From contig OZ037767.1 in NCBI GenBank assembly GCA_964035545.1, forward strand, positions 15,070,998 through 15,134,997: a DNA stretch of 64,000 bases, given 5' to 3'. Positions 3,131 to 58,315 of the stretch are shown in pieces (positions within the stretch are counted from its first letter, which is position 1; the number at the start of each line of letters is the position of its first letter). Source of the stretch: Bugula neritina. Its lineage: Eukaryota; Animalia; Bryozoa. The position numbers and the translations under genes were made by a program. Below the pieces are notes generated by a model. It was not told the DNA's origin and searched no databases. It saw only the letters and a program-made list of their open reading frames with translations.

Positions 3131-6100
3131 CTACAAACTTTGAAAATAACTGCAAGAAAGGTATGACTTACTCTTTTTCTTAGTCTTACTGTGACTCTCA
3201 GTCGTAATGTAAAATAAAATTGTGAACTGTAAAGTTAAACCCAAGGCTGAAATTTATTTAATTAAATTTAGACAATCTGAATCATTGGCTCAATCCTTGA
3301 GTTTGACTATTACTATTATTGTTACGATTGTGATTATCATTGGCATTATGCCATTATGATTATCATTATGATTGTAATTGTGGTAATTCTAACATTAATT
3401 ATAATCATAAATTAAAAGGTAATGATTAATGATAATTATTTTCATTTTGTAATCATAATGATAATCATAATGATGTAAATTTTGATGTAAAACCAAAATA
3501 CTAAAACTAAAAGTAAAAGTTATAAAATTAAATGATAAAATATTATAATGATAATTATTATATTAATATTTATTATATTATTATTGAATATATTATTTCA
3601 TTAGAAAATAGGTTGCAGCTTAGCATGATTAAAATTCAGTAAAAATTAGTTTACCAACAGCAAACATGCATGCGTCTTGTCAACATTCAATTCGTAGTGT
3701 CATAGCGAAGCCAGATTACTGGTAGTACGACTACTAGAACTAGTCAACTACTACTACTAGTGATGGATTACAGATCCTTGGCGATTTTAGCTGTGAGTGA
3801 CCTTCACCTCACATTCTCGTCATGTGCGCCGCAGAGTAGAGGGTATAAAGCACTGAGCTGGAAAAGAAAGAATATATTTTAATTATAGGTAATACTAATA
3901 GTAATATAATTTATGGTAATATATAGGTAATATTATTGAGTTCATTGGTATGGAGTATAGACCTATCACTGATAGTATCAGTATCAACTACCACTTACGT
4001 ACTACTTCAACTTATAACTTACCTTCAACTCAAACTGAAACTGCTTGGAATCATTTGTCTTTGATCATATTGGCATTGTCATTGTGATTGTAATAACTAT
4101 TAATATTTTTAGTTCAACATCAATGCCGAACATATTGTAATAACTAATAAGATAATCATAAGGTTGATATATTTTGCTAATACTAATACTAATACTAATA
4201 GTTATAGTAATAGTTATAGTATTTCAGTGTCACTCTCACTCTGGTGGAGTGAGACTCAGACTTAGAGTTAGAGACAGAGTCAGAGTGAGTCCGAGTAAGT
4301 CTGAGTGTTGGTAATAGTAATAGTCATATAAATTTAAATTATATTTACTTATTTCTAGCAATCACAATGGCAATAGTTATAGTAACTTTCACTCACTCTT
4401 AAATCATTGAACCTGAACTAAAAGTAAAATTAAGCATTATGATTATCATTATGATTATACCTATGATTTTATTATGTTTAAATTAAAAATCACTATCATG
4501 ATAATATCATAGTGATAGACATATTATTGATAAATGATAATATAAAAGTAATTTGATAAATTATACATTGATTTTGAATTAAGGTGATACTGATACTAGA
4601 CCGGTACTGAAAGTGATAGTAATACTAATAGTAATAGTAATAGTCATATAAATTTAAGTTATATTTACTCATTACCGGCAATCACAATGGCAATAGTAAC
4701 TTAAACTGTAACAGTAATGGTATGGGTATATTTGAAATTGTCACTATCAGTATTGCTATGAATCAAAATATAATGCTATCATACCAATAATTTAAAATAA
4801 TATTACAAAGCTTCAGTAGCAACTTTTACTTGTACCAGTTTGGAATTTTGAATTATACATATTCTTAGTTAAAGTCTTCAAGTTTATTGTCAAAATGAAC
4901 TTGAAATTAAAGACTTAGTAGTAAAAATTAAACTAAGACTGACTGTAAGTGACTAAGATTAAAAATAAGTAATTTTAAATATCGATTTAGTATTTTTCTT
5001 ACTCTTTGTCTTAAAATTGACTTTTATTTTGCACCTACTCCTGGTCAATGATTCTTTTTTCTATTTATATTACTATTGCTATTAGTATAATTGACTTAAA
5101 TTTAATAATAGATATGATTATATCTTTATAAATGTGATATTTGATTTTATGAATAGTAATTCGAAAACTCTTTGGTATTATTTATTTTTGATCATTGTAG
5201 TTATCATTATATTTGTATAATAATTATGATTATCAAATTCATTATCGATATTTGTATTATGGTATGGATATCTGCCTCCATCCCATGTTCTATTTTGCAG
5301 TGCCTTTTTACATTTACGTCTAGGTTCACATTGCGATGGTCATACTGATAGCACTTGGGGACAGTGATGACCATAATGATTATCACTAATATTAGGATTA
5401 TCGTTATTAGGATTTAGAATAATTTAATAAACAAGCAACTTAAAACAAATGTTTTTACTAATATACATATTAATTACTAATATAAATATACTACTATGAA
5501 TATTATAATTATTATACTTTACAATTCAAAGTAAGATAATCATAATACGAACTGGTAAAACTAAATATAAAGTAAATGTAATAATACTAATAGTAGTTAT
5601 CCATTCCCCTTTGGTTTCACATACCAATAATTGGAAACCTCTGTCCTAATATTATTTCTATTAATATTGCTCAAAGTTTGATCCCTATTTAATTTTATAG
5701 TTCACTCACCAGCTACATAATTTTATTAAAATACATGTGGTATTGGTTATAGTACTAGTGAAACTTGAAGTTGAATAGCATGCTTATTACTCACTGCTCT
5801 TTGCTTACATTATTAGGGTTACTCTTTAGTCTTAGAGATACCCTAACATAAACTTGAAAGCTGGAGGTAGTACTAGTCTGGTGCTGTGTTAATCCTACAC
5901 TGTTGACTTATCAACACTGTGACTATAATTATGAGTCATTATAAGTCATTTTCATATAGTAGTAATCACTATGACAGACTGAAAGTCAGAAAGACTAAAT
6001 ATAATGGTAAAGTGTGTAAGAATAAATCATACTTAATCAATTACTTTTAGTTTTGTTACCAGTGTTGGGTCAACTTTCAGAATAAAGAATAAATATAATT

Positions 6101-6882
6101 ATAAAAATAAATGGATAAAAATTCCAATCATGGTTTAATGTGCCTATTTTAAGCTGTTAATTTAATTACTATAATATAAGTGCTCAAAATACAACTTTTG
6201 ATTTTCATAATTATGTTTTAATTTAATACAGATACCATAGCATCATATACGGTAGAATCAGTTGTATCTTATTTAATAATAAAGTAACTTTTTGCAGCTT
6301 TCACAGTTATTAATTATTCACTTGTTAGTCTTTGAACTGGGACAATGTTTGAAACTTGAAGTAGGATGAAGTTTGATTTCAGTTACCGCAATGGTATCTG
6401 CAGTCACAATAGGAATACGCATATAACTATGTTTATATTTGTGAAAAATATATAGTCAAAACTAGATAAGGTAATAGTAATTATAATTGGTTTCACTTTT
6501 AATATATTCCTATAAACTGGAAAATAGACAGAAGCATTTAATCATGAAAATAAACCTAGTGGAAGTAAATCAATTCACTAAGTATAGTAAAATATTTACT
6601 ATTCAGTAAGTTTATTTACTTTAGTTAATTGTACTTGATTATTTCTGTCGGTTTTTCAGTTGATTTTTCTACTTTTTGCTATAGCATATCAAACTACCAC
6701 AAAGTCATGCTTCCGTATTACAATTATAAACATAGTGTTCCTGTGTAATGTTATAGTAATGTAATAGTAATATTTGGATCATTGTAAGTATTTCTGTTGT
6801 TGTACTGATTGATAAATATTTTTTAGCTTGCATGGATATTTGCAACGATCAAGATGCCATTTGAACCTGGACTGGAATAAAG

Positions 6883-8247
6883 ATGGCAAATCGAGAAGCT
6901 AGCTACAATTATTCTGCTGAAAGAAACTTGGTAAGCAAAAATAAGCTGCAGCATTAAGCAGTAAGCAATATGACGATGAACTTTGCTTGATTTTGATTGA
7001 CCTTAAAATATCTGGTCACCTTTCACCAACGTGGTCCTGCGCGGGTGGCGGGTGACCTTAAAATGTCTGTTGCACGTAAAATAAATTTTGTGACAGTCAA
7101 AAGTATGCTGATCTTTTTCGTATTTCAGTGCATCGGTGTCTTAGCTTAAGAGCTGAACCCAACAATTATGATCTAAAGCTGTTTTTTACTAGAAAGTGAT
7201 TTTACTGTCTTTCTGATTATTCTTGGTTTTTCAGCTTGATGAATTGAATAAATGGATTTGATTTCGGGTATTATGTAATGGATGAAAGAAATTTTTCTTA
7301 AATTTGTACTGAGCAATTTTTGCTATTGCTATGATGTTTAGTGATAAAATTGCACCCTTAATAACCCTGAAAACTTTCATTACTAGCATTTGTTTATGTT
7401 CATTTTTAGGAAATTAAAATGAAGACACAACTCACCGATGCTATCTCACTGTGCCTGCATGCAGTTTATCTAAAAAGGTACTCCTATTAGCTGGCTCTTG
7501 CCCAATACCTGGTTGTCTCTGTAACTATTTTTTGCTCGCAGATGAGTTTTTTGAACTTGACATTTTATTGATTTTGAAAGTTATAGTGAGCTTTGAACTT
7601 GCTAGCATCGTTTTTTAAAGACTTGCTGCAGTTTTTATCAACATTTTTTAAGTCAATGGTGTTAGTTTGGAAGCTCTCTCACTCCTCTCTCTGTCTCTTT
7701 CTCCCACACCTTCCACTCAATCTCTCTCTCTTTCTCCCCCTCTCTCCCACCCTCCCTCTCTCCCACCCTCCCTCTCTCCCACCCTCCCTCTCTCCCACCC
7801 TCTGTCTCTCCCACCTTCTCTCTCTCCCACTCTCCGTCTCTCCCACCTTCTCTCTCTCCTAACCTTTCTCTCTTCCCTTTTCCACTATCTCTCTGACTCT
7901 CTCCCTTTCTCTCTTCTACCCCATCTCTCTTCCATCCTCTCTCCTAACCTTTCTCTCCCACACCCCCCCCCTCTCCCACTCTCTTTCTCTCTCTAGTTTG
8001 CATGGCTTTACCCAATTTTGGTTTATTTTTTTATCTTGTTTCAGAGTATCCAAAAGGAAAGCTAAAATTTATTTAATATATATTATACCAACTTGAGCTT
8101 TACATATAATATCAAATAAATGCTGTGTTTTGTTAAAACAATGTTTGCAACTTTGTAGTATATTCAAATTCATAATTTATTTGTAGAGTCACACAACAAG
8201 ACACTACTCTGACACACTCACAAGTTGCCACTGATCCAGCAGTATAG
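6883..8247 (+). CDS. Possible small spliced ORF (58 aa), or exons of a non-coding transcript
   Basis: Putative exons 6883-6930, 7410-7477 and 8187-8247 with GT-AG sites join in frame to MANREASYNYSAERNLEIKMKTQLTDAISLCLHAVYLKRVTQQDTTLTHSQVATDPAV*. No recognisable family. Confidence 0.2.
7673..7995. repeat. Polypyrimidine CT-rich tract with ~18-bp unit CTCTCCCACCCTCCCTCT
   Basis: Visible directly; the Leu/Ser/Pro-rich ORFs here are artefacts. Confidence 0.9.
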
Positions 8248-11200
8248 ATGATTGTTTTCTCCACTGGCTATGCTGTCACGCTTTACTGTTGTGGTGTTTG
8301 AAACAAACCAATTGTTTGCCTACGCAGATTAGGGTGAGAAAAAAAGTGAGAAATGAAAGCTGTTTTTAATACCAACTACACTTAGTTTTTATTGAATGAA
8401 AAACAAAGTGAAATCATTAGTTATCCGTTAAATGACTAAATCATTGTTTATAAAGATGAAACACAAATAATCTTATAATATGCTAATGAAATTTGGCTTT
8501 CAAATAGCTTTTTTCTGTATATTTGTTGAGGAAGTTTATCTTCAACAAAACTTCGTAGCTGTTGAATATGTGGAGAGTATTTTATATTGCATAAATTTAT
8601 AGAGTAAAAGGTTCTCATCAAACTTTTACAACTTAGCTCATCGACGGTTTAAAAGTGTGAGTCACCCTTCACACTAGAGTTTTATAAAGTTTTAATGAAT
8701 GTGCAGTATTTTATAAGATATTGTGTGTCTCGTAAATTTAGCTATTTCTACCTTTTCAGTGAGATTGGAGTAAACACACCTCAAAATTCACATCTGGTAT
8801 CACATTGATTTATCGCAAGTCAAAGTACACCTACTAACTCTTCCTTCCCTAATACCTGCTTGCTTTTGCACTTCTACTCATTTCATATACCTAACATTTC
8901 TCTTGCAGATGAATTACATCTTTTAAGTTGTAAAAGCCTTAAATAGCATGAAATTAATGAAGTTTAAACCGTGGCCACACTAACTATTGATGCGTTTATT
9001 GATGGGTTAAATTACACGAAAATATTGTCTCTTTCTTTTTAGTTTCACCTAAAGTATTACATACTATTGATGGAGGCTTTGCTGAAGTTTTTGGGTGATG
9101 ATTTGTCAATAATTTTCCAGAGAAGCTGGCTGGCATCATTATGCAGTTTCCAAATTTCTTTCGGCTTTGCTCTAGTGAAAATGTTGGAAAACAATCAACA
9201 AAAAGGTTTGTACCATAAACGAAGTTATTGTGTGCGTGTTGTCAAAGCATAAAGTGTGCTGGAAATTTTTGGGTTTCTGTTGAGATGCGTTTTTGCTTTT
9301 CCTGCATGAAAAAAGTTCCAGTTTCAGTTAATATCACTAGCGGAGTGCCCACCTATATTTTAAATCATATTGATGCATAAGTTCTTTTTGTAATATTAAA
9401 AGTATAACTTGCTTAATTGCTATTCAATGCCCTTTGAAGTTTCCAACTGTAATTAATTAGTTGATTTGGCAGCATAGTATCGATGATTGATGAAGGCAGC
9501 CGATATAATTATAAGCATAAATATCTATATCTACATGAAGATGTCATTCCCAATGATTGTTATTCTGAAATCAGCTGATTAAGTTATCACAAACTAAACA
9601 TTTTGACCAGCGGCTTGCAATGCAACTTGGTGAAATTTCAGACCTAGATAAATTGAATTTCTTACTGAAAATCGTGAAGGTATTAAAGTTTAAAGTTAAA
9701 GTTTAAAGGGTCATCTCTCTGCGAATTCTAATAGCATGGTGCCAATTAGACTTGAAAAAATTTCAAGGCACTACAAAGCACTAAGCCCATTCTTACAAGT
9801 AGTTTCAAAGTGCACTGGAATTTCAGTTTACTTGTCATTGTATAGAATCCTGATCTACACTATATAGCATTCACTATTGCCTGCTTCTTTTAAGCATCTA
9901 TAATGTATTAACTACAGTTTGCTTTGAGAAGTGAATTTCTACTTGGTATTTTTTCCTTATCATTCCGTTGTTTGCCAGTAGTCTTAATTTAATGGATTTT
10001 CCCTTTTCAAAAGTGGTTGTGACAATCAAAACACATCATGCAGCCTGCAACTACACAATCAGTTAGTAATTTCTTCCATTAAAGTAGCTCTTCTGGTTAC
10101 TCTTGCTCACCTAAAAGCCTGAGCCTCATTCAAATTGCAAGTTTTTAGAGTTGTTAATTTTTCATGCAGTCCTTCATTTTTTTTTTGTTAGGCACAAAAT
10201 TAGTATTCACTAGACCTAATCTTTCATCTGCATGTATGCCTATTGTTTGTTCATTAAAGAAAAACCTCTGCTAAATATTGAACTAATAATGAAAATAAAT
10301 TCCCTGAACTAAAAGTAGCAGTGTGATTTTGGTATTACAATTAGTTGTTAGCATAGAGTCAAGTTATTGACAGGAATTTTCAAATTGAAATGAATGAATT
10401 TCATTGTAAGTCAGCAAGATTTAGTCTAAGTAAACATAGCATTACATTGTGTTTTATTTAGCATTTGCAGAAGGCAACATATATTTTAAGGATTATTGTA
10501 AACTTAAATGTAATTTTAAGTACTTTCCATGTTTGTTATTGTAGATGGTCTTGTTCTTTGGGATGAATGTGACAACTCCTTGTGTCAAGCTTAACTGATT
10601 GACTACTGAATCCCAATCATATGTTTTGCCAAAAAATGTGAAAATGGAGTGCATGTCTACTTTGTTTGAAAAAATATTAAAAATACTTTTGAAACTTCAT
10701 CTAGCCAAACAATACAACAGTTTCATTTCATTAAAAAATATCATTTGCACAAAAATGTATTATGTAATCAAACAATTTCTAGAAAAAAAGTGCTTTCCTC
10801 CAGTTTTGCTAATGAACTAAATTTTTCATTATATGCTTGTCTTTATAATTTTATTAATTGTTTTTTCTGGTGAGTCAATTAAAGTCAATTCAACCTAGAA
10901 AAGTCTGAATTTCAGACTTAATTTCAAGCTAGAATATTCACATTTTTAGGTCTGCGTTTGCAAACATTGTTGTGTTACTTTACTTTTTATATTTTTTGAA
11001 ATAAATATCTTTTTAGCTTGTGCCTATTCATGATTAGAATAGTATAATAATATTTAACTTTTCTTCAATTTCAATAGATGAAAATGTTGATCAGTTGGAG
11101 TATTCAGTTTAGCTGAATTTTACTTGCTTCTGCGAAAACAATCTTTTGGAGTTGTCTGCCCTCTCTTTAGGTAATTTTTTGACCTATGGTCAACGCAATA

Positions 11201-34977: not shown

Positions 34978-36930
34978 AATCACCTTTGCAACATAATTCA
35001 ATAATTGCATGGTCAAGCAGAATAAACTACAATTAACAGCAACAACAGTGTAATAGTTGCGTAGAAAAGTTGTACTGCAAAAAACTAAAAGAATGCAAAA
35101 TCTATAAATGTGTGCTACCAAGTAAATGCTGAACAGACATCATGAAATAGTGTACGAAATACAAACTATTAAACTTACCTGTTGATCTAATGCAGCCAAA
35201 ACCTTAAGCTTAGAGTAGTGGAATGGTGCTGTTCGATGTTGATATGCTACAAGTAGCTAAGATGACTCAAATTCTTGCCTTTAGGAGTAAGAGGCCTCAG
35301 CTCAGTTTCAACAAAACTTCCAATAATCTCAACGGATGCGCTCAATTAGGAGCCACAACAAAGCACACCCATGTCATTTTAGTAAACTCTAAAAAATGAA
35401 CGAAAATAAAACTGTTAGAGAGTAAACAGAGAAACATATAGTGATGGGGGAAAAACCTGTCAGCAAAGGTTAGATACACTCATAGCCATAACACGAAGAA
35501 AAAGATAATGAATAACAACCTATTCAAGATGACACAAGAAACCAAACAAATTTCTTTGACTAAAAATATAATTAAATACTATATTACTTGGCAAAAAATA
35601 TTTGTTTTGAACAACGTATTATTGGGAAGAATTGCCAGTGTCTTAAATTTTGAGATTAAAATTTCTGCCTTATAGCGGAAATAGAGAGGCAATCAATAGT
35701 GTACAAAACGTGTTTTCAGTCATTGGCTGTTGACTAAATTGACAAAGTTAAAGAAAGCTTCCATATCATTATTTATTTTGTTCTCAAGTGTGTGGTTACA
35801 GTTTCATGAGTCAGAAATATAATTATTTGAGATATGAAATCAAATGTAGTCAAAAGAGTGTCCTACAATTTAAAATGTAGTAATAGAGCTTTGACAATAA
35901 TTTCTTCTGCTAAGTAAAACAGGTACCATTATGTGCTACTTATCTTTTAGAGATGAACATCAAGGATGTTGAAAACAAAATAGTTGTAAATTACAGCAAA
36001 TACCTTTCTACTTACCTAACCAGAGAAAATAAGTTTTCAACCTTGCATGCACTCAGCTGGTTTTCAATGTTTGGATCAGTGACATCTTTATAACTGATAG
36101 CAGCATTATGTGATAGCTTTAGGAATTGTTACCTTAAATCTAAATTATATAAAACAAGAAGTGCAAAAATATGGCATTAGTACTCATTGCACAATACAAA
36201 CTTGCTAGAGTAGCTAATCTAGCATCACATTAATTTAAGAAAGACAAAATTTTATTACTGTTCACAAATGATGAATATTAAAATTTGAATAATTAGACAA
36301 ATTAACAATGATATTGATGCTACTTCAAACATTACCAATGGTAAACACCAAAATACTAATAGGAATAGTCATGTTAACATCAATTAGAAAAGTAAAGATA
36401 ATTTGAAAATGAGACAGTTTATAGGTCTAACTCTTATAGTTGACAAGCAATTACAGGGCAGTCATATTGATGTAGGCTACCCTCAAAATGTAGCACTTTA
36501 AAAATATTAAAAAGACAGCACATATAAGAACATAATCTTAAAAATAGGCATATGTGACACCTATATTTTGATTAACAAAGAAATCTTCTTTACTTTATTA
36601 ATATAGCTCATATAATGGTATTCTGTCTTAGTATGTTATTTTAATACTTGAAATCTAATCAGCTACAGAAAAGTACTTCAATTCAAAGGCCTTCATAATT
36701 ATTCTTTAGTTTGCTATTTAAATAGACAGTAAGGTTGATGAATAAAATAAAAGTTAGTAAAGTAAAAACTAAATAAATTGAGAATAATATCTCCACTCTA
36801 AGGTTATAATCCTTATAAATTAACATTTTAATACTCCTGTTATCCTTAGGTATAGTTGTTAGCAATTTAACTATGAGCTCGAAGCCAAATGTCAGTATCA
36901 GCATCCCCATTACATTGACTAAGACTGACT

Positions 36931-37039
36931 AGTAGTAGTAGGTGGATGGTCCTAGGACAACCCTTCCCCCGTCGAGTCTTTGACTCTCCGGTGTCAGGGA
37001 TTGTCCTAGGACGCATCCACCTACTACTACTCTATTAGT
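36931..37039 (+). repeat. Left TIR (109 bp, self-complementary)
   Basis: Exact reverse complement of 51317-51425; begins (AGT)3. Confidence 0.98.
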
Positions 37040-37220
37040 TTTTTTTATTAAGTTTTAGAAATTGTGCATTTTAGGACAGTTTATTATTTTATTGTCCTAG
37101 AATTGTACATTTTTTAGGGTAAACATTAACTTTTATTTTAAAATGTATTTACTCGTTACTATTAGTAATAGAAATAAATTATTATATTCTTAACGTATAA
37201 TAATTTATTATTAATAGCAT

Positions 37221-38117
37221 TTAAACGTTATAACTTGAAAATACTGGTAAAGATTCACTAGATTCTACTATATCTCCATCACTCGTTGATAATATTAATT
37301 TATTACCCGTTGCGTCTTGTAATTTAGGAATAGCGTGATTATTTATATTATTTATTGTAATAATATCGGTAATATTTATATTGGTTTCTACAATATTACC
37401 ATCACTCGAAAGCATTAATAATTTACCTCCGATTGACGGTTGTATTTTATTCATAGCAAAATTATTTATATTACTAGTTGTAACGACATCGCTAACGCTT
37501 AAGCTACTTTCCGCAATATTACCCGAAGTAGTTGAAACGGTTAATTTTTCATTCGCGGGTTGTATTTTATTTATAGCGAAATTATTTATATTACTAGTCG
37601 TAACAACATCGCTAACGCTTAAGCTACTATCTACAATATTACCCGTATTAGTTGATACGGTTAATTTTTCAGTTGGGTCTCGTATAAGAGGTACGGCGTA
37701 ATTAGATACATTAGTTTTTGTAACGACATCATCAACTTTTAAATTACTATCTATAACGCGTCCATCATCAGTTGATATAGTTAATTGGTTAATAGGGTTT
37801 TGTATAAGAGGTACGGCGTAATTAGATACATTAGTTTTTGTAACGACATCATCAACTTTTAAATTACTATCTATAACGCGTCCATCATCAGTTGATATAG
37901 TTAACTGATTAATAGGGTTTTGTATTTTAGGCATACTCGTATCATCAACGTATTTTTTTGTAGCCGCGTCTTGATCGTCAGCCGGATCAATGACTCTAGA
38001 TATTTTATTTTCCCCCATATCTAGCGTACCCGTAAGAGTACTACTACCGTTTATTAAAACGAATTTTTTCGTATTTATTTCCGTTTTTCCACTTCCTCCG
38101 AATTTATAAACACTCAT
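37221..38117 (-). CDS. Putative fibre/spike protein with six ~40-aa repeats
   Basis: LDMGENKISRVIDPADDQDAATKKYVD resembles a tail-fibre/YadA-stalk neck motif. It is followed by six 40-aa beta-rich repeats (120-bp period). Confidence 0.7.
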   Translation of the reverse strand: MSVYKFGGSGKTEINTKKFVLINGSSTLTGTLDMGENKISRVIDPADDQDAATKKYVDDTSMPKIQNPINQLTISTDDGRVIDSNLKVDDVVTKTNVSNYAVPLIQNPINQLTISTDDGRVIDSNLKVDDVVTKTNVSNYAVPLIRDPTEKLTVSTNTGNIVDSSLSVSDVVTTSNINNFAINKIQPANEKLTVSTTSGNIAESSLSVSDVVTTSNINNFAMNKIQPSIGGKLLMLSSDGNIVETNINITDIITINNINNHAIPKLQDATGNKLILSTSDGDIVESSESLPVFSSYNV

Positions 38118-38120
38118 TTA

Positions 38121-38879
38121 TTACGGTATATAAAATTCGTCTAACCCGTGTCTATACCTACCATTATTTTTTGAGGAAGAAAGATCTAAAGTAATAAAGC
38201 CGTGAGGTTTTTGCCATCCTTTATAACAAAAGTTTTTAAATTCGTTTAACGTTAAATCTCCGTTTACGTGATCTTGATATATATGATTTAAATTTTTTCC
38301 ATCTTGAGGAAATAAGCAAATAAAATTAGCGTTTTCTCGAATAGTGTTTCTAGGCAGCTTAAAATAATTTTGCGACAAATAAAAGCAATCGACATTATTG
38401 TGTCGTCCTCTTACGTAATAACTTTCACAAGTTTTTTGTTTTTCCAACATTAAATCATCGAATATTATTAAATTTTTATTATTAGCGTCTAATTTGCTAG
38501 GGTCATAAACGTCGTCACTAGATTCAATAAATTCGGCGTCTATATTACCGTTACCCTTACTATTTTTTAAAACACGAGTTACATTTATACCCGAATTTAT
38601 TATCGCGTCACTATTTTTAAAAAAATTTAAAATTTCTTCTTTAGTTAATTTACGTTCAAAAGCCTTCCTCATATTTATATATTCGGGTTGAGAAAGGCTT
38701 TTACCGTAAATCATAAGTTTATCGTAATCGAGCCAATTAGGTTGTAATAATAAATTACAAAGTAAAGTAGTTTTACCGCATCCAGATTTTCCAACGATAA
38801 GACCTCTTATGCTTTTAGGAAGTAAAGGATTATTATTACGATTAATTTCGTTTTTCCACGAAAGATTTTCTATTTCCAT
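38121..38879 (-). CDS. A32/FtsK-like DNA packaging ATPase
   Basis: Walker A GKSGCGKT, Walker B LIIFDD, RGRH motif, LSQ and IRENA. Confidence 0.95.
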   Translation of the reverse strand: MEIENLSWKNEINRNNNPLLPKSIRGLIVGKSGCGKTTLLCNLLLQPNWLDYDKLMIYGKSLSQPEYINMRKAFERKLTKEEILNFFKNSDAIINSGINVTRVLKNSKGNGNIDAEFIESSDDVYDPSKLDANNKNLIIFDDLMLEKQKTCESYYVRGRHNNVDCFYLSQNYFKLPRNTIRENANFICLFPQDGKNLNHIYQDHVNGDLTLNEFKNFCYKGWQKPHGFITLDLSSSKNNGRYRHGLDEFYIP

Positions 38880-38894
38880 TTATTATAATAAATG
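38877..38894. promoter_or_regulatory. Palindromic bidirectional initiator CATTTATTATAATAAATG
   Basis: A perfect 18-bp palindrome whose ends are the start codons of the divergent ATPase and PLA2-integrase ORFs. Function is inferred. Confidence 0.65.
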
Positions 38895-48400: not shown

Positions 48401-49134
48401 AAAATATACGAAATAGAGTTAACGTTAAATTAGTTACTAGCGAAAGCGAAGCTAAAAAGCTAACTAATCAGCCTAACTTTAAAAACTTCACTATATTTTC
48501 TGAAAATTTAATAGCCGTTCATATGAATGTAGTAAAATTAAAATTTGACAAGCCTATATATTTAGGTGCGGCTATATTAGACATTAGTAAAACTCTAATA
48601 TATGACTTTCATTATGGTTATATTAAACCAAAATATAATAAAAATGCGCAATTATTATTTACGGACACGGACAGTCTAATGTACCACGTAAAAACGAAAA
48701 ATTTTTATGAGGATATATTACCAGACATTACTAGAATATTTGACACGAGTAATTATCCTAACAATCACTCGTTACCAACGGGTATAAATAAAAAAGTAAT
48801 AGGTATGTTTAAAGACGAAGCCGGCGGTAAACAAATTACGGAATTTGTAGGCCTAAGAGCTAAATTATACTCTTACAAGATGGATGGTATGGAAGAGAAA
48901 AAATGTAAGGGTATTAATAAGACTACTCGTAATAATTGTATAACATTTGACGATTATAAAGAGTGTTTATTAACACGACGAGATCAGCTTAGAACGATGA
49001 ACGTTTTGAGAAGTCATAAGCATACAATGTACGCTGAAACAATAAATAAAGTAGCTCTGTCGGCCGAGGATGATAAGAGAATTATACTCGAAGACGGTAT
49101 AACTACAGTCCCTTACGGTTATATAAATGATTAA
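45454..49134 (+). CDS. polB: Protein-primed family B DNA polymerase with N-terminal terminal-protein region
   Basis: ExoI IYADFE, ExoII HNLSGYD, RKGVFPY, ExoIII YMKVDV, YLDANNLYG, KLMNNSVFGK and FTDTDS. Also a Rho-N-like N-terminus, NKCF...HY (OTU-like), a Zn finger and an EndoVII-like insert CYIC...DHCH...AHNNCN. Confidence 0.97.
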   Translation: MEFNTKITVKALKALAKERGLKRYSQLKKAELIRLLSPMDEPVPNIGQAPLIPTPVIKIMREIFTQTTRNIKKWVKGIVKPIAKIVNPIKDKIMALYNQPKLKEQAAKGWFQTYEIKGLPKYDIDSFSKLVKLNVIKLLKPTIKVKIFMYCEMEKINVRTGETIVEIMPFTSNIETILESTNINEIYDEIIERIKENFASLNAKGSSWTFKAIKKMEISINKYQPLNGSSWIDLPKEIKLKKAVINPKNEDNKCFMWAILMSIHTPKNHPERISNYKEYVNKFSWEGVEFPATKKSIDAFEEVNFDFGINVFTWDGKTINLWKKTKNQGKIINLFYISDDKKSHYAYIKNLNKLLGSQINKRVSAKHICVNCMNSFRSNESLKKHQNWCLTNDGVTTVFPKIENKIKFQSSHYCRSMRVPFTIYADFECFTKPIYGCKPNFKESYTNQYQQHEPSGFGYYIVSITGECNYRSYTKEAEDEDIGEQFIRLLEFDIKNLYKKHKFAKPMRITNSEQESFQLAENCYICEEKLGDDRVRDHCHLTRDYRGAAHNNCNLNYKIPKFYPIFIHNLSGYDAHLFIKNLGGEPSCIPNTEEKYISFSKKLLVDEFTNNKGEKIKVTREIRFLDSYKFMSSSLASLVANLKRDDFKHLQKHYIDCQKHYAEKQLDLLLRKGVFPYDYFNNVNVLNEKCLPPKEKFYSSLTESNISDEDYEHAQKVWREFNMKTFKDYHDLYMKVDVLQLADVFENFRNVCLKHYKLDPAWYYTAPGLSWDAMLKTTKLELDPITDVDQLLFFEKAIRGGVSMISHRYAKANNKYMENYNASEPSSYITYLDANNLYGWAMSKNLPVGNFKWMTEKRCKDLEKSLNFPPSFLEVDLEYSKKLHDSHKDYPFCPERIIINKVEKLVPNLNNKKNYVIHYKALKQCLMYGLKLTKIHKGITFNESNKLEKYIKLNTELRTLAKSDFEKDFFKLMNNSVFGKTMENIRNRVNVKLVTSESEAKKLTNQPNFKNFTIFSENLIAVHMNVVKLKFDKPIYLGAAILDISKTLIYDFHYGYIKPKYNKNAQLLFTDTDSLMYHVKTKNFYEDILPDITRIFDTSNYPNNHSLPTGINKKVIGMFKDEAGGKQITEFVGLRAKLYSYKMDGMEEKKCKGINKTTRNNCITFDDYKECLLTRRDQLRTMNVLRSHKHTMYAETINKVALSAEDDKRIILEDGITTVPYGYIND

Positions 49135-49540
49135 AATAAAAAATATAAAATTACAAAATAAAGCTCTCTCGAATATTGAATTAGAGTTTGCGATTAAAAA
49201 GTTAAAAATACCATTTTTTAGAGGAGTATTTTCAAGAAACGATTTACCCAATAAACCGCGTAAAAAAGAGTGCGGTATATTAAATTTAGACAATTTAATG
49301 GGTAACGGTACTCATTGGGTAGCTTGGTATAAAAATAACAATAAAAAATATTATTTCGATAGTTTCGGATTACATCCACCGCTAGAAATAATGAAATATT
49401 TAAAACCGCCTATATTTTATAACACGGAACAAGTACAAGAATTCGGTACCGTTATATGCGGACACTTGTGTTTATATTGGCTTAAAGAAATGTCTAAACG
49501 CGAGTCGCCTCAATTAATTATAAATAAATTACTTATATAA
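49127..49540 (+). CDS. Adenain/Ulp1-like maturation cysteine protease
   Basis: GTHWVA (His), YFDSFG (Asp) and Q...CGHLC (Gln/Cys). Confidence 0.95.
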   Translation: MIKIKNIKLQNKALSNIELEFAIKKLKIPFFRGVFSRNDLPNKPRKKECGILNLDNLMGNGTHWVAWYKNNNKKYYFDSFGLHPPLEIMKYLKPPIFYNTEQVQEFGTVICGHLCLYWLKEMSKRESPQLIINKLLI

Positions 49541-50053
49541 ATGACTTCAGTTTATATTTTTGGAAATTCGGCTAATATAATAAATGAACAACCGTATATT
49601 ACGAATATTATAATTCCGTCAGAATTTACGTATTATTTAGGAGGATTTACTACTACATTAATTAAAGATTTTTTAGTCGATGAACTGATTGAAATAACGG
49701 ATATATTAATACAATTTTACGGTGAACAAGCTCATAATACTAAAAAACTTTATTGGACTGATAAGCGAATAGGCTTACATATTAGAAATAGTACTGAATT
49801 ATTTAATCCATCCAATGAAAATACTTTTTATAATATAAGCGGTAATGAACACAATCTTCCGTTTAGCGAAATAAACGCTAATAAAATTATTGAAGCTAAT
49901 AAAAACTTTAAATTAACAATAGCGTTATCAAAAAATTATCCTAGTCATAAACCCAGTGACGTAATTTTAATCGACACTCCCGCTAGCGAAATAACCGATG
50001 CGGCATTACCCTTTCATTACGTATTAGTAAAACTTTATTATAATTATAAATGA
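49541..50053 (+). CDS. Tandem paralogue 1, beta-rich, putative receptor-binding/decoration protein
   Basis: Shares YWTDK, ISGxEHNxP and YPSHKP...DTP..EIT..ALPF with the next two ORFs. Function is inferred. Confidence 0.8.
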   Translation: MTSVYIFGNSANIINEQPYITNIIIPSEFTYYLGGFTTTLIKDFLVDELIEITDILIQFYGEQAHNTKKLYWTDKRIGLHIRNSTELFNPSNENTFYNISGNEHNLPFSEINANKIIEANKNFKLTIALSKNYPSHKPSDVILIDTPASEITDAALPFHYVLVKLYYNYK

Positions 50054-50583
50054 ATTCAGTATATATTTTTGGAAATTCGGCTAAAGCCAATATAATAAAT
50101 GAAAAACCGTATATTACGGATATTATAATTCCATCATATTTTTTATTTGATGGTAGATTTGATAAATTTGAAGGAATATTAATTAGAGATTTTTTAGTCG
50201 ATGAACCGATTGAAATAACAAATATATTAGTACATTTTTACGGTGAACAAGTTCATAATACTAAAGAACTTTATTGGACTGATAAACAATTAAGCTTAGA
50301 AATTAGAAATAGCGCTGACACATTTAAGTATGGTGCAGTCACTGAAAATATTTTTTCTTATGATATAAGCGGTGCTGAACATAATGTTCCGTTTAGCGAA
50401 ATAAACGCTAATAAAATTATTGAAGCTAATAAAAACTTTTCACTATTATTAACATTATCAAAAACTTATCCTAGTCATAAACCTAGTAATGTTATTTTAA
50501 CCGATACTCCCAATAATGAAATAACCAATACAGCATTACCTTTTCATTACGTAATAGTAAAACTTTATTATAATTATAAATGA
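50050..50583 (+). CDS. Tandem paralogue 2
   Basis: Same motifs; ATGA overlap with paralogue 1. Confidence 0.8.
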   Translation: MNSVYIFGNSAKANIINEKPYITDIIIPSYFLFDGRFDKFEGILIRDFLVDEPIEITNILVHFYGEQVHNTKELYWTDKQLSLEIRNSADTFKYGAVTENIFSYDISGAEHNVPFSEINANKIIEANKNFSLLLTLSKTYPSHKPSNVILTDTPNNEITNTALPFHYVIVKLYYNYK

Positions 50584-51104
50584 ATATTTATAAATTTAGT
50601 AAAGTCGATATAACGACTAATAAAGCGTTTATTTCAGGTCTTATACATAATAATAGATTTTATTATTACGAAAATATTAATAGCTTTACGGTAGATTTAA
50701 TTAACGATTATTTAGTAGATAAACCTATAAAAATAACGCACGCGTTAATACAATTTTATGGTGACCATTTTACTTGGGCTAAAAAAAGAGTATTATATTG
50801 GACCGATAAAAAAATAGGTTTACATATTCGTAATAGCGTAAATCCTTTTGATGAATCTAAAGAAAATTTATTTTATACTATTAGCGGTGCCGAACATAAT
50901 GTTCCGTATAGTAAAATAAATATTAATAAAACCGTTAACGCTAATAATAATTTTTCTTTTACAATAGCTCTTTCGAGTGATTATCCAAGTCATAAACCCA
51001 ATGACGTAGTTTTAATTGATACTCCCGCTAGCGAAATAACCGATACAGCATTACCTTTTTTTTACGTATATTTTAAACTTTATTATAATAGCATTCATGA
51101 ATAA
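50580..51104 (+). CDS. Tandem paralogue 3
   Basis: Same motifs with a more divergent N-half; ATGA overlap with paralogue 2. Confidence 0.8.
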   Translation: MNIYKFSKVDITTNKAFISGLIHNNRFYYYENINSFTVDLINDYLVDKPIKITHALIQFYGDHFTWAKKRVLYWTDKKIGLHIRNSVNPFDESKENLFYTISGAEHNVPYSKININKTVNANNNFSFTIALSSDYPSHKPNDVVLIDTPASEITDTALPFFYVYFKLYYNSIHE

Positions 51105-51316
51105 TCTACTAATAATTATTTTTTTTCTTAAAATAAATAATTTTACACTACTAATAAAATAATAAAAAAGTAAATTATTGTTATAATATTCTTCAAAAAA
51201 AAGTGAGCTAAAACCATCCACCCTAAAAATATTTTTTTTATTTTTAAAAATAAATATTTTTCTAAATAATATTATACTACTTTTTTATAATATTATACTA
51301 CTTTTTTATAATATTT

Positions 51317-51425
51317 ACTAATAGAGTAGTAGTAGGTGGATGCGTCCTAGGACAATCCCTGACACCGGAGAGTCAAAGACTCGACGGGGGAAGGGTTGTC
51401 CTAGGACCATCCACCTACTACTACT
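51317..51425 (-). repeat. Right TIR (109 bp)
   Basis: Exact reverse complement of 36931-37039; followed by TSD CTGACT. Confidence 0.98.
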
Positions 51426-51544
51426 CTGACTTTATAACCCTCAAGCTGTGGCACTCAATTTCTATAAGTAGTAACTAATAACAAATATAAAATTATTTAT
51501 TTGCTACTGATAGTGATAATAATAATAATTAAAAATAATAATAT

Positions 51545-54505
51545 GATCCATTAAAATAGAACTAATAAAGCCAACGACGTTAATGGTATGTCTAACTAAA
51601 CATGGCATGTCTCGTCTGGCAGTGGGTATGTGGAGGGCCAGGCAACCTACGGCCGTCAACCCGTTAATGGCACAACTAAAAGAAGATACTCAAGAGAAGA
51701 CAACAAAGTTGTCATGAAATGCTGCTTCAAAAGTACACCCAAATTGAGAGGTTATAGAAAAACAATGTATGAGCTCTGTAGACCTGGATCAAAGAATTAT
51801 TTAAAAAGAATGTGCAAACGCTGGAAAACAGAGGAGAGTTTAACATCAGCGAATAGAGACTAGCGGATTAAGCAAGAACTATGAAGAAACACAAGCATTT
51901 TATGGAAGAAGAACTCCATAAGATTGAAGAAGGAACCTTGCAAGAACTAGGCACATCAATTGGTGAAGAAGATAATGAAGAGCTAAATTTGCAAATAGAG
52001 GATGTTATAGTACAACATGAGATAGCATATAAATCAGCCATGAGAATTTTAAGAGTACCTAGTTCAGAGGTAGAAAAAGTGTTAGTAGAAAAATGATAAA
52101 TGAGCATAACAAACTATCTAATGATCGACCAACACTAAGAGCCCTTAGGCACATTGAGAGGGTCAAATTACTACAGGCAGTAAAACAGATTAGTGATGTG
52201 CTAAACTGTGTTGAGATTATTAATACCATTGAGCTTAATAACACCACCATGGCTTGTGCGAAAAATAGTAACAGAACAAGTGTGTAACAAAAAGGAAAAA
52301 GAAAAACTGACAATGTACAAGTATGGAAAATACGACTGCAGAAGAAATAAAAAGAAATTAGATCAGACTTAAGTAAAATAGCAGAGTGAAAAAGTAGAGC
52401 TTACAATGATTCATTGAGAAGAATGGTTGAAGAAAAATATAGGATAAAGAACAAAGAGTGTGGTGTAGTGATTGAAAAACTGAAGCAAAACCTGAGAGCT
52501 GTAAGCCAGAAGATAAACAGATATACAGAATGAGTTGATCAATATAATCAGAACACAATGTTTACAATGATAAGCGCTTTTATCAAGAATTACGAGGAAA
52601 TGAATACGTACATCTAAAGAGGCACCTGACAAGGAAATCAAAAGCATTCTGATAAAATATATGGGGTCAGCCAACTAAAAATAATACCAATGCAGAATGA
52701 CTAAATAAAGTTAGCAACAAATTGGAGCATATGTAAAGACAAGGAAATTAGATCTTAGAAACGATGCAAACAACTGGAATAGCAATTAATGTCATAAGGT
52801 TGATAAGAAAAAGCATGAAACCTGGAAAACACAACTGAAATACCTGGAAGAAAAGATAGGAGAAATAAAGATCAAACTAAGAATTTTCCAAGGAGACTCT
52901 TTATCTCTATCACTTTTCTCCAACTACCGATTCGCATGTCAGAAGCAGCTCAATGATGCAAATTTCGACGAGACAGAAAACAAACCATCTCCTATATGTG
53001 GATGACCTGAAGGTAAATAGGAAATCAAAGTGGGAACTGGAAGCTTTGGTAAACACTGCCGGGATCTTCACAAGGAATATAGAAATGAAATTTGGATTAA
53101 AAAATGTGCCACACTGGTTATGAGAAAGGGAAAGAAAATTAAGGACACAGGAATCAGTTTGCCTGATGAACAGGTAATCAAAGATCTGGGTGAGAAGCCG
53201 TATAAATATCTAGGAGTTCTTGAGATTGATGGAATACAAATATATGAAATGAAAAATAAGATCAAGGAGTACTACAAACAAATAAGAAAAGTTCTGGATT
53301 CAAAACTGAATGGTGAGAACACAATCAAAGCAATAAACACATGGGCAGTAACAGCAGTGCATTACACAGCTAGAATACTTGACTGAACTGTTTCATGAGC
53401 TAAAAAATATAGACTGAAAGACAAGGAAGCTAATGACAACAAACCGTGCACCCTATCCGAGAGCAGATGTAGGCAGGCTGTATTTTAGCAGAAGGGAAGG
53501 CGGTAGAAGAATGTTGTCAACTGAAAAATGCATAAAGATTGAAAACTGCGCACGTCAGACTACATAAATATAACATAGACTGATAGAAACACCACACTGA
53601 ATACCTTCCTAAAAGACAGAACAGCGGTAGAACTAAATAATGATAACGTGATAGAAAGAACTGATGAGTGTAAAGAAAAGCTTCACGTGGTCAATACATC
53701 AAAATGGTGGAAGACATGAAAGCATTTTCCTGGAACTGGTTGAAGTATGGTTGGCTGAAAAAGGAAACAGAAGGACTGCTGACAGCTGCGCAAAATCAAC
53801 TATTCACTACTAGAAATTATAAAGTGGCTATGATGAGAGAACAGGGTAGCAAGAAGTGTGGAATGTGTAACGCAAGAGACAAAACTTCGATGCACGTATT
53901 GAGTGAGTTTGAGAAGGTAGCAGAAGGAGAATATAAGAAAAAACACAACCTTTTGGCATTGATAATTTCAATAGTAGTTGTGTGAACTTCGTGGGTTTCA
54001 GAAAAGTAAGAATTGGTACGGCCATCAAGCAGAATAAGTACTGGAAAATGATAATGTGAAAACCTTGTAAGATTTTAACATACACACTGACGTAGTCATC
54101 AAAGTTAGGAGACCCGATATATTAGTAGTTGACAAGCATAATGCTGAAACAACGATAATTGATATCACAGTCCCTGTTAACTACAGAGTAAAAGAAAAAA
54201 ATTCGAAAAGTTAGGAAAATATCAGAATTTAGCACTAGAATAAACCCGCCTTTGGAAAACATCAAAAAAGTCATCCCGTTGTAACTGGAGCCTTTGGAGC
54301 TTTATACAAGATTGTAGACTGGCTGACACTACTTGGAGTAGCTGAAAACAAATGCTCATTAATTCAGCAGACACCCTTACTAGGATCAGGATAAGCTCAC
54401 ATCCTGAGGAAAGTTCTAGCCATTTCAGCCTAGTATAACTAGGCCAATGGTAAAAGGTTACACCAGCTAAAAAACTACGGTCAATCAACAATAATAATAA
54501 TAATA
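51545..54505 (+). mobile_element. Decayed R4/Dong-like non-LTR retrotransposon, near full extent
   Basis: 5' remnant RRYSREDNKVVMKCCFKS...GYRK, then the same RT/CCHC/RLE remnants as 1-1937. (TAA)n tracts flank both ends. Boundaries are approximate. Confidence 0.8.
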
Positions 54506-55550
54506 GTGCAGTTGGTTCTATTATTAGATTAGCATATCGATTATGACTTTTCGATTGCCACCCTGATACTATGAGTAAAATGTACAAGCATACGTGAAAG
54601 TATAGATATGATCATAAGTATAAAAATAGGTATAAGTATAAATATAAATATAGGTACAAGTATAAAACGAATGATTATATTATTAATAATATTAGTCAGT
54701 GATACCTATAACCGTAATGGTTTTTAGACTTACAGTTATCATTAACATTAGCTGAGTAATATGATTAGTTAAAATAATGGTATTCATTATCATATCATAG
54801 TTATAAGTTATAACTCTAGTCTCTAAAGAGCAACAGCAAGTGTAATTGGGATATTCATATTAAATTTCATATTCACATAGTGAAATGTTTATGTTATGAA
54901 CTAATTTATTCCTTCAACATTTAACTATAAATATGATTAACACTAACTTTGACCAGCAGTATTACTAAAAGAAGCGTATTACAAATATAAGATAATAAAA
55001 TTCTAGTAGTAGGACTAATAGTATTACTAGGTCCAGTATTATTCTTGTTATCTTATTCATCATTCATGAGTTATCAAATTTAAAATTACTACTTATTAGC
55101 ATCAGCATATAAAAAGTAAGATCATTAGGAATAATTGTCATGAGGTATGATCTATGATTTGCATTATTCATATATAGTTTAATATCAATATGATATATTA
55201 TTATTGCTGATAGTCTATGTTATAGTTAAATTTATACTTATCTTTACAGTTACCTATAGTAGCACTTATTAGTTATTTGTGGTAGCCAAACTAATGTTTA
55301 ATATTAATAAATTAAACTGAGTATCATAAAAGTGTTACTAAGAATTTTAATTATAATCGTAATGGTGATCATATTACTTTATTATAATTAGTATATTTTA
55401 TCATTAATGCTAAACTGAGTTAATGTATATACTTTGAGTTTTACTATTACTCATTATATTTACACTTATAGTAAAACTAAATATGTAAAAGTTATACTTA
55501 TACTATTATTATTCGTATTTCATTAGACTTACATCTAAGATCGCAGTCCT

Positions 55551-55700
55551 ATTACTACTACCACTGATACTAGTACTACAACTAGTACTAGTACTGCTAC
55601 TAGTACTAGTACTACTACTACTACTACTACTACTACTAATAGTACTGTTACTACTACTACTACTAGTACTACTACTAGGTCTACTACTGTACCAGTACAA
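55551..55700. repeat. Degenerate (ACT/AGT)n microsatellite, copy B
   Basis: Length variant of 2984-3130. Confidence 0.85.
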
Positions 55701-58315
55701 CTACAAACTTTGAAAATAACTGCAAGAAAGGTATGACTTACTCTTTTTCTTAGTCTTACTGTGACTCTCAGTCGTAATGTAAAATAAAATTGTGAACTGT
55801 AAAGTTAAACCCAAGGCTGAAATTTATTTAATTAAATTTAGACAATCTGAATCATTGGCTCAATCCTTGAGTTTGACTATTACTATTATTATTAGTGTTA
55901 CGATTGTGATTATCATTGGCATTATGCCATTATGATTATCATTATGATTGTAATTGTGGTAATTCTAACAATAATTATAATCATAAATTAAAAGGTAATG
56001 ATTAATGATAATTATTTTCATTTTGTAATCATAATGATAATCATAATGATGTAAATTTTGATGTAAAACCAAAATACTAAAATTAAAACTAAAAGTAAAA
56101 GTTATAAAATTAAATGATAAAATATTATAATGATAATTATTATATTTATTATATTATTATTGAATATATTATTTCATTAGAAAATAGGTTGCAGCTTAGC
56201 ATGATTAAAATTCAGTAAAAATTAGTTTACCAACAGCAAACATGCATGCGTCTTGTCAACATTCAATTCGTAGTGTCATAGCGAAGCCAGATTACTGGTA
56301 GTACGACTACTAGAACTACTACTACTAGTGATGGATTACAGATCCTTGGCGATTTTAGCTGTGAGTGACCTTCACCTCACATTCTCGTCATGTGCGCGGC
56401 ATTAGACTAAGTAGAGGGTATGAAGCACTGAGCTGGAAAAGAAAGAATATATTTTAATTATAGGTAATACTAATAGTAATATAATTTATGGTAATATATA
56501 GGTAATATTATTGAGTTCATTGGTATGGAGTATAGACCTATCACTGATAGTATCAGTATCAACTACCACTTACGTACTACTTCAACTTATAACTTACCTT
56601 CAACTCAAACTCAAACTGAAACTGCTTGGAATCATTTGTCTTTGATCATATTGGCATTGTCATTGTGATTGTAATAACTATTAATATTTTTAGTTCAACA
56701 TCAATGCCGAACATATTGTAATAACTAATAAGATAATCATAAGGTTGATATATTTTGCTAATACTAATACTAATAGTTATAGTAATAGTTATAGTAATTC
56801 AGTGTCACTCTCACTCTGGTGGAGTGAGACTCAGACTTAGAGTTAGAGACAGAGTGAGTCCGAGTAAGTCTGAGTGTTGGGAATAGTAATAGTCATATAA
56901 ATTTAAATTATGTTTACTTATTTCTAGCAATCACAATGGCAATAGTTATAGTAACTTTCACTTACTCTTAAATCATTGAACCTGAACTAAAAGTAAAATT
57001 AAGCATTATGATTATCATTATGATTATACCTATGATTTTATTATGTTTAAATTAAAAATCAATATCATGATAATATCATAGTGATAGACATATTATTGAT
57101 AAATGATAATATAAAAGTAATTTGATAAATTATACATTGATTTTGAATTAAGGTGATACTGATACTAGACCGGTACTGAAAGTGATAGTAATACTAATAG
57201 TAATAGTATTAGTCATATAAATTTAAGTTATATTTACTCATTACCGGCAATCACAATGGCAATAGTAACTTAAACTGTAACAGTAATGGTATGGGTATGT
57301 TTGAAATTGTCACTATCAGTATTGCTATGAATCAAAATATAATGCTATCATACCAATAATTTAAAATAATATTACAAAGCTTCAGTAGCAACTTTTACTT
57401 GTACCAGTTTGGAATTTTGAATTATACATATTCTTAGTTAAAGTCTTCAAGTTTATTGTCAAAATGAACTTGAAATTAAAGACTTAGTAGTAAAAATTAA
57501 ACTAAGACTGACTGTAAGTGACTAAGATTAGAAATAAGTAATTTTAAGTATCGATTTAGTATTTTTCTTACTCTTTGTCTTAAAATTGACTTTTATTTTG
57601 CACCTACTCCTGGTCAATGATTCTTTTTTCTATTTATATTACTATTGCTATTAGTATAATTGACTTAAATTTAATAATAGATATGATTATATCTTAATAA
57701 ATGTGATATTTGATTTTATGAATAGTAATTCGAAAACTCTTTGGTATTATTTATTTTTGATCATTGTAGTTATTATCATTATATTTGTATAATAATTATG
57801 ATTATCAAATTCAATATCGATATTTGTATTATGGTATGGATATCTGCCTCCATCCCATGTTCTGTTTTGCAGTGCCTTTTTACATTCACGTCTAGGTTCA
57901 CATTGCGATGGTCATACTGATAGCACTTGGGGATAGTGAGGAGCATAATGATTATCACTAATATTAAGATTATCGTTATTAGGATTTAGAATAATTTAAT
58001 AAACAAGCAACTTAAAACAAATGTTTTTACTAATATACATATTAATTACTAATATAAATATACTACTATGAATATTATAATTATTATACTTTACAATTCA
58101 AAGTAAGATAATCATAATACGAACTGGTAAAACTAAATATAAAGTAAATGTAATAATACTAATAGTAGTTATCCATTCCCCTTTGGTTTCACATACTAAT
58201 AATTGGAAACCTCTGTCCTAATATTATTTCTATTAATATTGCTCAAAGTTTGATCCCTATTTAATTTTATAGTTCACTCACCAGCTACATAATTTTATTA
58301 AAATACATGTGGTAT

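Follow-up and report, generated by a model that had tools for sequence, protein, structure and literature searches.

A probably young, nearly intact Polinton of Bugula neritina with start signals that may point to transcription by a helper virus

Introduction

Whether, and when, the Polintons of animals make particles is the question raised by a 14,495-bp element in the bryozoan Bugula neritina. The element, a Polinton or Maverick, spans positions 36931–51425 of a 64,000-nucleotide stretch of contig OZ037767.1, which is called the window here and to which all positions refer. Because intact young Polintons are already known, a recent intact copy is ordinary in itself; 134 intact Group I Maverick copies have been reported from 17 vertebrates (PMC8502044, PMC8097293). 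What sets this locus apart is the putative promoter wiring, the CpG excess, and hairpin-forming terminal inverted repeats (TIRs). The reading favoured here, to which a probability of roughly 0.4 is given, is that the element is a nearly intact, probably recently inserted, multi-copy Polinton of group I/Beta that would be transcribed by the RNA polymerase of a co-infecting virus of the poxvirus or asfarvirus type. A helper-virus trigger for Polintons has already been proposed (discussion of PMC8097293), and promoter evidence for such a trigger was not found in the literature searched. If the reading is true, animal germ lines would carry inducible, virophage-like elements, and the rarity of observed animal Polinton particles would be explained. 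Moreover, the motif would then indicate the kind of large virus involved and foretell what promoter to expect in a helper still to be discovered.

Start signals and transcription

The element carries 16 open reading frames (ORFs), namely 15 whole genes and one fragment; it is approximately 92% coding and 69% A/T. An ATAAATG start was found in 14 of the 16 ORFs, corresponding to 14 of the 15 intact genes. Among the remaining ATGs, TAA stands directly in front of 14 of 316 within the element and of 62 of 1868 in the flanks. The sequence TATATAAATG occurs nine times in the window, eight times within the element, and seven times at starts. In poxviruses, late genes initiate at TAAAT(G/A), and the late genes of African swine fever virus (ASFV) initiate at TATATA (PMC5294985). 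The motif and its position at the start codon are the same as those of the poxvirus late TAAAT(G) and the ASFV late TATA signals (PMC5294985, PMC7163114). The near-universal use of this poxvirus late-type start suggests that the genes would be switched on by a large DNA virus infecting the same cell, and not by the host on its own; helper-driven transcription of the element's genes is a tentative proposal. Pfam searches of the 16 ORFs revealed neither an RNA polymerase nor a TATA-binding protein (TBP); unlike poxviruses and ASFV, the element appears to lack transcription machinery of its own.

An early-type signal was also observed. The only AAAATTGA of the element lies at 45414–45421 on the forward strand, 40 nt upstream of the start of the DNA polymerase gene (PolB). 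The promoter of the DNA polymerase gene of IIV-6, an invertebrate iridescent virus, begins with AAAATTGA (PMC5294985), and pacmanvirus and its transpoviron carry both AAAATTGA and TATATA motifs (PMC11788076). The putative promoter motifs of the element match published pox- and asfarvirus late signals and giant-virus early boxes. In the related loci L001 and L082, AAAAAATGAAAAA was found approximately 40 nt upstream of the PolB start; we take it to resemble the vaccinia early promoter core.

The spacing of the genes is also relevant. The start codons of the divergent ATPase and integrase genes are separated by a 12-bp palindromic, all-A/T spacer (38880–38891), so that two TAAATG signals stand back to back. 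In relatives, the same spacer measures 7–45 bp in 34 of the 36 loci with both starts found (median 24 bp, 92% A/T), although a few of these starts may be miscalled. Consequently, little room is left for ordinary promoters and 5' untranslated regions (UTRs). The motif AATAAA, with 17 occurrences on the PolB coding strand, is not avoided on the coding strands (56 occurrences vs 43.2 ± 4.7), which suits transcription by a polymerase other than RNA polymerase II (Pol II).

In the cycle that we propose, the element would be an active endogenous virus that works much as a virophage does. The integrated copy would lie silent in cells free of cytoplasmic large DNA viruses. Upon infection by such a helper, viral machinery would recognise both the early-type box before the polymerase gene and the TAAAT initiators of the individual genes. 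Copying of the linear genome by the protein-primed polymerase would begin at the hairpin-forming ends, and packaging, together with the PLA2-integrase polyprotein, would fall to the ATPase, capsid, penton, and protease. New copies would be inserted by the chromodomain integrase with a 6-bp duplication, and the CpG excess would result from long replication outside host methylation. A physical precedent is given by the Polinton-like viruses found in entomopoxvirus occlusion bodies (PMC11296320). In favour of the proposal, large invertebrate DNA viruses commonly show a CpG excess too, with an observed/expected ratio (o/e) of 1.41 ± 0.29 (PMC4219779). More broadly, this animal Polinton lineage could represent the endogenous virophages of a still undiscovered poxvirus-/asfarvirus-like virus, with late-wired virion genes, an early-boxed polymerase, and a CpG excess and hairpin ends that would stem from extranuclear replication; this wider proposal is likewise held with reserve.

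Several observations weigh against helper-driven transcription. The exact TAAATG precedes 63 of 170 full-length starts in relatives, and AAATG precedes 117 of 170. In addition, TAAATG predominates in 24 loci, but these represent five assemblies, one of which contributes 18, and thus are not independent. Because the exact motif is found at a minority of the relatives' starts, and most of the loci that favour it belong to one assembly, the clade-wide signal is better described as a looser TATA-A(n)-TG. The exact AAAATTGA precedes PolB in one of six distinct relatives, and the start of PolB is itself of the late type. No clear avoidance of TTTTTNT, the early terminator of poxviruses, was observed (9 vs 11.1 ± 2.8), the non-avoidance of AATAAA stands without a host-gene baseline, and TAAATG use is uncorrelated with CpG content in relatives (rho −0.19, p 0.22, 42 loci). 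The CpG excess of the element, described below, differs from the published viral signature, in which it is paired with CpT loss (PMC4219779): here TpG/CpA are depleted (0.62), while the depletion of ApG/CpT is mild (0.87). Finally, expression of coral polintovirus hallmark genes was seen in control colonies as well as in heat-stressed ones (PMC11131425).

The alternative that survives best, although it is considered unlikely, is an autonomous nuclear virus. In that case, host Pol II would start at an A/T-rich initiator before the ATG or within neighbouring genes, and a helper would be unneeded, with particles and reintegration as in the helper-driven cycle. This would accommodate the short A/T-only spacers without a fixed TAAAT in relatives, and TATATAAA, which fits the TATA consensus, is present at seven starts. 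Nuclear entry is in any case necessary for integration, and the expression of polintovirus genes in control coral colonies points the same way (PMC11131425). However, a Pol II TATA box lies approximately 24 bp ahead of the start site (PMC7163114), so a TATA-box reading would set the transcription start past the ATG, and the next methionine of the capsid gene is at approximately residue 83. The 12-bp divergent spacer with almost no room for a UTR, the 17 AATAAA motifs on the PolB coding strand, and the lack of a TBP match among the ORFs also count against host transcription.

An improbable alternative is that TAAATG is no promoter and is silent on any helper, being instead a gene-packing or translation signal that arises from stop-start coupling in an A/T-rich genome. 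The tight packing and A/T content of the element are compatible with this, and in 4 of the 14 cases the TAA is either the upstream stop itself (two) or directly follows a stop (two). In the other 10, however, TAAATG is independent of any stop, and these include both divergent starts and one site within the PolB coding sequence. Moreover, animal translation initiates poorly when T occupies position −3, which counts against a translation signal. Helper-driven transcription remains the reading that we favour. In the literature searched on animal Polintons, no report of a TAAATG motif or CpG excess was found, and the word "promoter" is absent from the Polinton papers examined, including PMC11296320.

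Boundaries, family, and age

The element is bounded by two 109-bp TIRs, at 36931–37039 (forward strand, starting AGTAGT) and 51317–51425 (reverse strand), and is flanked by the target-site duplication (TSD) CTGACT at 36925–36930 and 51426–51431. The first-pass annotation had described identical TIRs and a perfect TSD, and both descriptions hold: the TIR pair is 100% identical over 109 bp, and CTGACT is found on both sides. AGT...ACT ends with a 6-bp TSD are those of Polintons/Mavericks, for which this end motif has been described (PMC8097293).

Contigs of four public sequencing runs (X1–X4) were aligned to positions 35400–52500 of the window. In two of the four runs (X2 and X4), a joint was found that skips exactly 14,501 bases with 6 letters shared, while in X1 loose contig ends occur at 36930 and 51426, each matching the opposite flank. 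Since the empty-site joints hold CTGACT once, it is a true TSD. Contigs of X1 also show the same TIR end preceded by different DNA in other insertions, and family members 90–99% alike were found across the element in all four runs. Accordingly, the Polinton family is multi-copy. The filled left junction was bridged by none of the contigs listed in the four runs, which carries no evidential weight. In X3, the summed contig depth was approximately 12,600–34,400 at 37684–45106, the half with the integrase and capsid, and 4,900–6,500 at 45107–49103 (PolB); although depth is not a copy number, this contrast may reflect subfamilies with a common virion module and a more divergent polymerase.

The target lies in repeated host DNA. 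Positions 1–8574 of the window are repeated at 52569–64000 with 98% identity, and the flank contigs of X1 are approximately 99% identical to the window at a depth of 7,500–9,100, which is again not a copy number. The empty sites may thus be other units of an amplified host repeat, and an insertion later than the repeat amplification fits these data. The flank duplication includes no empty paralogous site within the window. Insertion polymorphism had been proposed earlier as a check on recent integration. Empty sites with the same flanks do occur in public contigs, but as the host sequence hit by the element is repeated many times, they do not prove polymorphism at this particular unit.

The first-pass annotation had also called the element pristine and recent, with no stops or frameshifts in 16 ORFs. 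The claim on stops and frameshifts requires correction. The sole homolog of an 86-aa ORF (44292–44552) is the 129-aa protein P0136, which shows a faint MORN_2 match and aligns in one frame at 44186–44284 and in another at 44304–44465. The ORF is therefore the 3' fragment of a frameshifted accessory gene (44186–44552, forward strand), whereas the other 15 ORFs look whole, and the core genes equal those of relatives in length. Since the damage is limited to a single accessory gene, it probably arose before the element was inserted here. As for recency, the identical TIRs, the 15 open genes, and the empty sites in X1 with the same flanks together support a young insertion. Between the flank duplicates, 85 substitutions and 16 gaps were counted, and each flank copy has changed by approximately 0.5%. 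For comparison, the lack of a lesion in the approximately 13.1 kb covered by the 15 open genes, treated as unselected coding DNA, roughly implies less than about 0.1% change since insertion; this age was derived by hand from the substitution-to-gap ratio of the flanks and is approximate, as gaps may cluster in simple repeats. Overall, we are confident that the element is a young, nearly intact group I/Beta Polinton.

The element could instead be an intragenomic self-synthesising transposon that is copied in the germ line and never makes particles, with capsid genes intact only through youth. No particle of this element has ever been seen, and the numerous 90–99% alike family members in the runs would agree with such copying, but the explanation is quite improbable. 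The capsid, probable penton, protease, and ATPase are full length compared with distant relatives, while the accessory gene decayed, and repeated stays in the germ line of a host whose own ratio is 0.37 would make a CpG o/e of 1.98 difficult to maintain. In vertebrate Mavericks, purifying selection acts on the virion genes (PMC8097293).

CpG content

The earlier observation, made by eye, that CpG is far more frequent inside the element than in the flanking DNA was confirmed. Inside, the CpG o/e reaches 1.98, compared with 0.36 and 0.38 in the two flanks, with a sharp step at both ends, and the TpG and CpA ratios inside are 0.66 and 0.60. By codon position, the CpG ratio is 2.15 at positions 2–3, 2.70 at 3–1, and 0.97 at 1–2, which limits the excess to positions of the synonymous type, and the coding sequences contain 658 CG compared with 432.6 ± 9.8 after synonymous shuffling. 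Homologous ORFs were present in 79 of the 81 related loci, and these 79 served for the comparison with relatives. Their maximum was 1.63, and the median was 0.84 for the 62 loci of at least 1.2 kb; two TIR-bounded viral contigs gave 0.74 and 0.56. Since a value of 1.98 is twice the neutral expectation and above all 79 relatives, an active CpG excess is indicated, not just missing decay.

In the host, CpG transitions are approximately 2.8-fold faster than those at other sites, as the flank duplicates show changes at 7 of 159 CpG and 39 of 2469 other C/G sites (p 0.019). Long residence would therefore erode CpG, so short residence is required. Thus, the claim that the CpG content marks an insertion spared methylation-driven decay stands as far as the faster host transitions are concerned and fails as a full account of an o/e near 2. 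That the high CpG content is only a lack of time for decay is very improbable and contradicted as a complete explanation, although the CpG-poor flanks with their faster transitions make it a necessary part, because lack of decay predicts an o/e near the ancestral value, not 2, the excess over synonymous shuffling is not accounted for, and the TIR-bounded relatives have low ratios. The CpG excess characterises the lineage and is a poor measure of age.

Variants inside the element were also considered at 37 listed sites of approximately 1,300, which are a selected subset. Among these, sites with T/A here and C/G elsewhere fell at CpG in 10 of 19 cases (30% expected, p 0.035), and those in the reverse direction in 3 of 14 (Fisher p 0.087 between directions). 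This is a weak hint of slight CpG decay in this copy.

Terminal and internal repeats

Positions 1 to approximately 101 of the TIR form an imperfect palindrome that folds back into a hairpin with −39.5 kcal/mol (z −11.9, 100 shuffles). Because the TIR folds back on itself, the terminal motif recurs inverted at the inner end of the TIR. In the loose ends of other family members, the changes in the two hairpin arms look complementary by eye, across separate contigs. Judging from the fold, a role of the hairpin in priming or in end repair of displaced single strands is conceivable. As a clade-wide trait, the hairpin TIR was rejected, with z values of −1.1, 1.6, and −0.5 in the related loci L002, L058, and L080, respectively.

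The sequence TGTCCTAG or its near reverse complement was found in the TIR arms, at 37040–37110, and at the start of an intergenic 31-bp tandem repeat (40263–40383), and it is possibly a protein-binding site. At 51198–51225, within the right end, a short stretch with CCATCCACC resembles the inner arm of the TIR and is possibly left over from a former end of the element.

Gene set

The intact genes start at TAAATG, with one exception given below. On the reverse strand, a fibre-like protein of 298 aa with 40-aa (120-bp) repeats and weak PHROG tail-fibre matches (37221–38117) is followed by the A32/FtsK-type packaging ATPase (252 aa, 38121–38879; Pfam Pox_A32 E 1e-8). On the forward strand, a single 454-aa ORF (38892–40256) combines DUF5679, PLA2, an rve integrase, and a chromodomain. 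Here, PLA2 is not a stand-alone gene but lies N-terminal to the integrase, and both domains occur together in 106 of the 120 best homologs listed; the fusion was therefore rejected as a novelty. Above the Pfam cut-off, PF00665 (rve), PF04665 (A32 ATPase), and PF21738 (capsid) were matched, and a PDB sequence search matched the integrase domain to foamy virus integrase.

The genes downstream on the same strand encode a conserved Polinton protein of 268 aa (40398–41204) with homologs in 49 loci, for which we assume a PZ-like label, and a basic protein of 103 aa (41208–41519) that may be cupiennin-like. These are followed by the double jelly-roll capsid protein (41541–42809; PF21738 E 1e-57), for which a PDB sequence search gave no meaningful match, and by the probable minor capsid protein or penton (252 aa, 42810–43568). 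The penton candidate has no Pfam match, adjoins the capsid gene, matches unnamed Preplasmiviricota clusters in the Atlas at 0.98, and has homologs in 40 loci. The core-like protein of 189 aa (43581–44150) may be PW/GasderminX-like; GasderminX and Cupiennin are accessory genes of the group I/Beta lineage. Protease-type sites lie between the domains of the PLA2-integrase ORF, in the 103-aa protein, and in the 189-aa protein (five sites); a processed virion polyprotein is inferred from them.

Beyond the broken accessory gene, a 159-aa protein with hydrophobic stretches is encoded on the reverse strand (44638–45117). The next forward ORF, of 88 aa, has a second methionine at 45160, and since both of its homologs are 78 aa long, its start is probably there; this lineage-specific 78-aa protein (45160–45396) is the sole intact gene without TAAATG. 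A second 12-bp divergent spacer at 45118–45129 was dropped when this start was moved.

PolB (45454–49134, forward strand) contains Exo I–III and Pol A–C motifs, whose catalytic residues are common to all three aligned sequences (the other two being relatives at 50% identity). The polymerase assignment rests on these motifs, as neither a Pfam profile match nor a meaningful PDB sequence match was obtained. PF03175 is absent from all three aligned polymerases (Pfam), and because a PolB outside pfam03175 is a trait of the Beta/group I lineage (PMC8502044, section 3.1), the element is placed there. All three polymerases also carry an Endonuclease VII-like insert; a VSR-like insert is named for Group I/Beta PolB in PMC10328495. 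The adenain-type cysteine protease (137 aa, 49127–49540, forward strand) matches Pfam Peptidase_C5 at E 0.004, below the cut-off, and its catalytic H/D/Q/C residues are common to the relative L002. Together with the integrase D-D-E and PLA2 H-D catalytic residues and the ATPase Walker A/B motifs, these results uphold the earlier claim of intact catalytic motifs in polymerase, integrase, ATPase, protease, and PLA2, the last being fused to the integrase. From this gene set, a virion-competent element is plausible.

The last genes are three tandem paralogues of 170, 177, and 174 aa (49541–51104, forward strand), with variable patches between conserved strands and 13 homolog matches, all in JGI contigs. 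The predicted fold is a beta-sandwich (predicted local distance difference test 70.7), for which the best fold-search matches, to jelly-roll or carbohydrate-binding structures, were weak (TM-score ≤0.41) and the Atlas gave nothing above 0.89. On the basis of the model, these proteins are likely spike or receptor-binding heads.

Relatives and comparable systems

Locus scans with the capsid or with a single PolB sequence gave nothing, while alignment-based scans gave the related loci used above. Two of these, L082 (16,929 bp) and L002 (15,597 bp), are IMG/VR contigs bounded by inverted repeats of approximately 1,090 and 123 bp, respectively, with no host flank; they are candidates for free Polinton genomes, and each of them encodes PLA2 and the integrase as two distinct ORFs.

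The closest described group is the Group I Mavericks/Polintons, i.e., the Beta "adintoviruses", which share the AGT-type TIR ends and 6-bp TSD, as well as a non-PF03175 PolB with OTU-type motifs, an rve integrase, ATPase, hexon, and adenain, and have a penton for which the element has a probable counterpart (PMC8502044, PMC8097293). Unlike Beta "adintoviruses" with a stand-alone PLA2X, the element has PLA2 fused ahead of the integrase. In the papers searched, no description of near-universal TAAATG, a CpG o/e of approximately 2, or palindromic TIRs was found.

Virophages offer a second comparison. By profile match, the capsid here is of the Polinton type (PF21738), unlike that of virophages. 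The likeness extends to Mavirus and endogenous virophages. Virophages and the pacmanvirus transpoviron are integrase-bearing or satellite elements that share their helper's promoter motifs without an RNA polymerase of their own (PMC11788076, PMC10328495). However, their hosts are protists, and the helper dependence or packaging observed there is inferred here. The Polinton-like viruses associated with entomopoxviruses have an animal host, a protease, and a parvovirus-type PLA2, as here, and their link to the poxvirus is physical; several of them use a tyrosine recombinase and a primase-helicase, and promoter analysis is not part of that work (PMC11296320).

Flanking DNA

Rfam gave no matches in the window. 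Short ORFs at 51881–53386 resemble a decayed non-LTR (long terminal repeat) retrotransposon, an identity for which Pfam gives no support. In detail, the 98% duplication pairs 1–8574 with 52569–58315 plus 61177–64000, with a period of approximately 52.6 kb (approximately 38 kb without the Polinton). The flanks have very high depth in X1 and are partly of low depth and approximately 90% alike in X2–X4, which suggests that the flank repeat is a lineage-specific amplified unit. One copy of the duplication alone carries a 2.87-kb insertion (58314–61179) with 890-bp inverted repeats (98%), palindromic ends, and a CpG o/e of 0.29, which is probably a non-autonomous DNA transposon.

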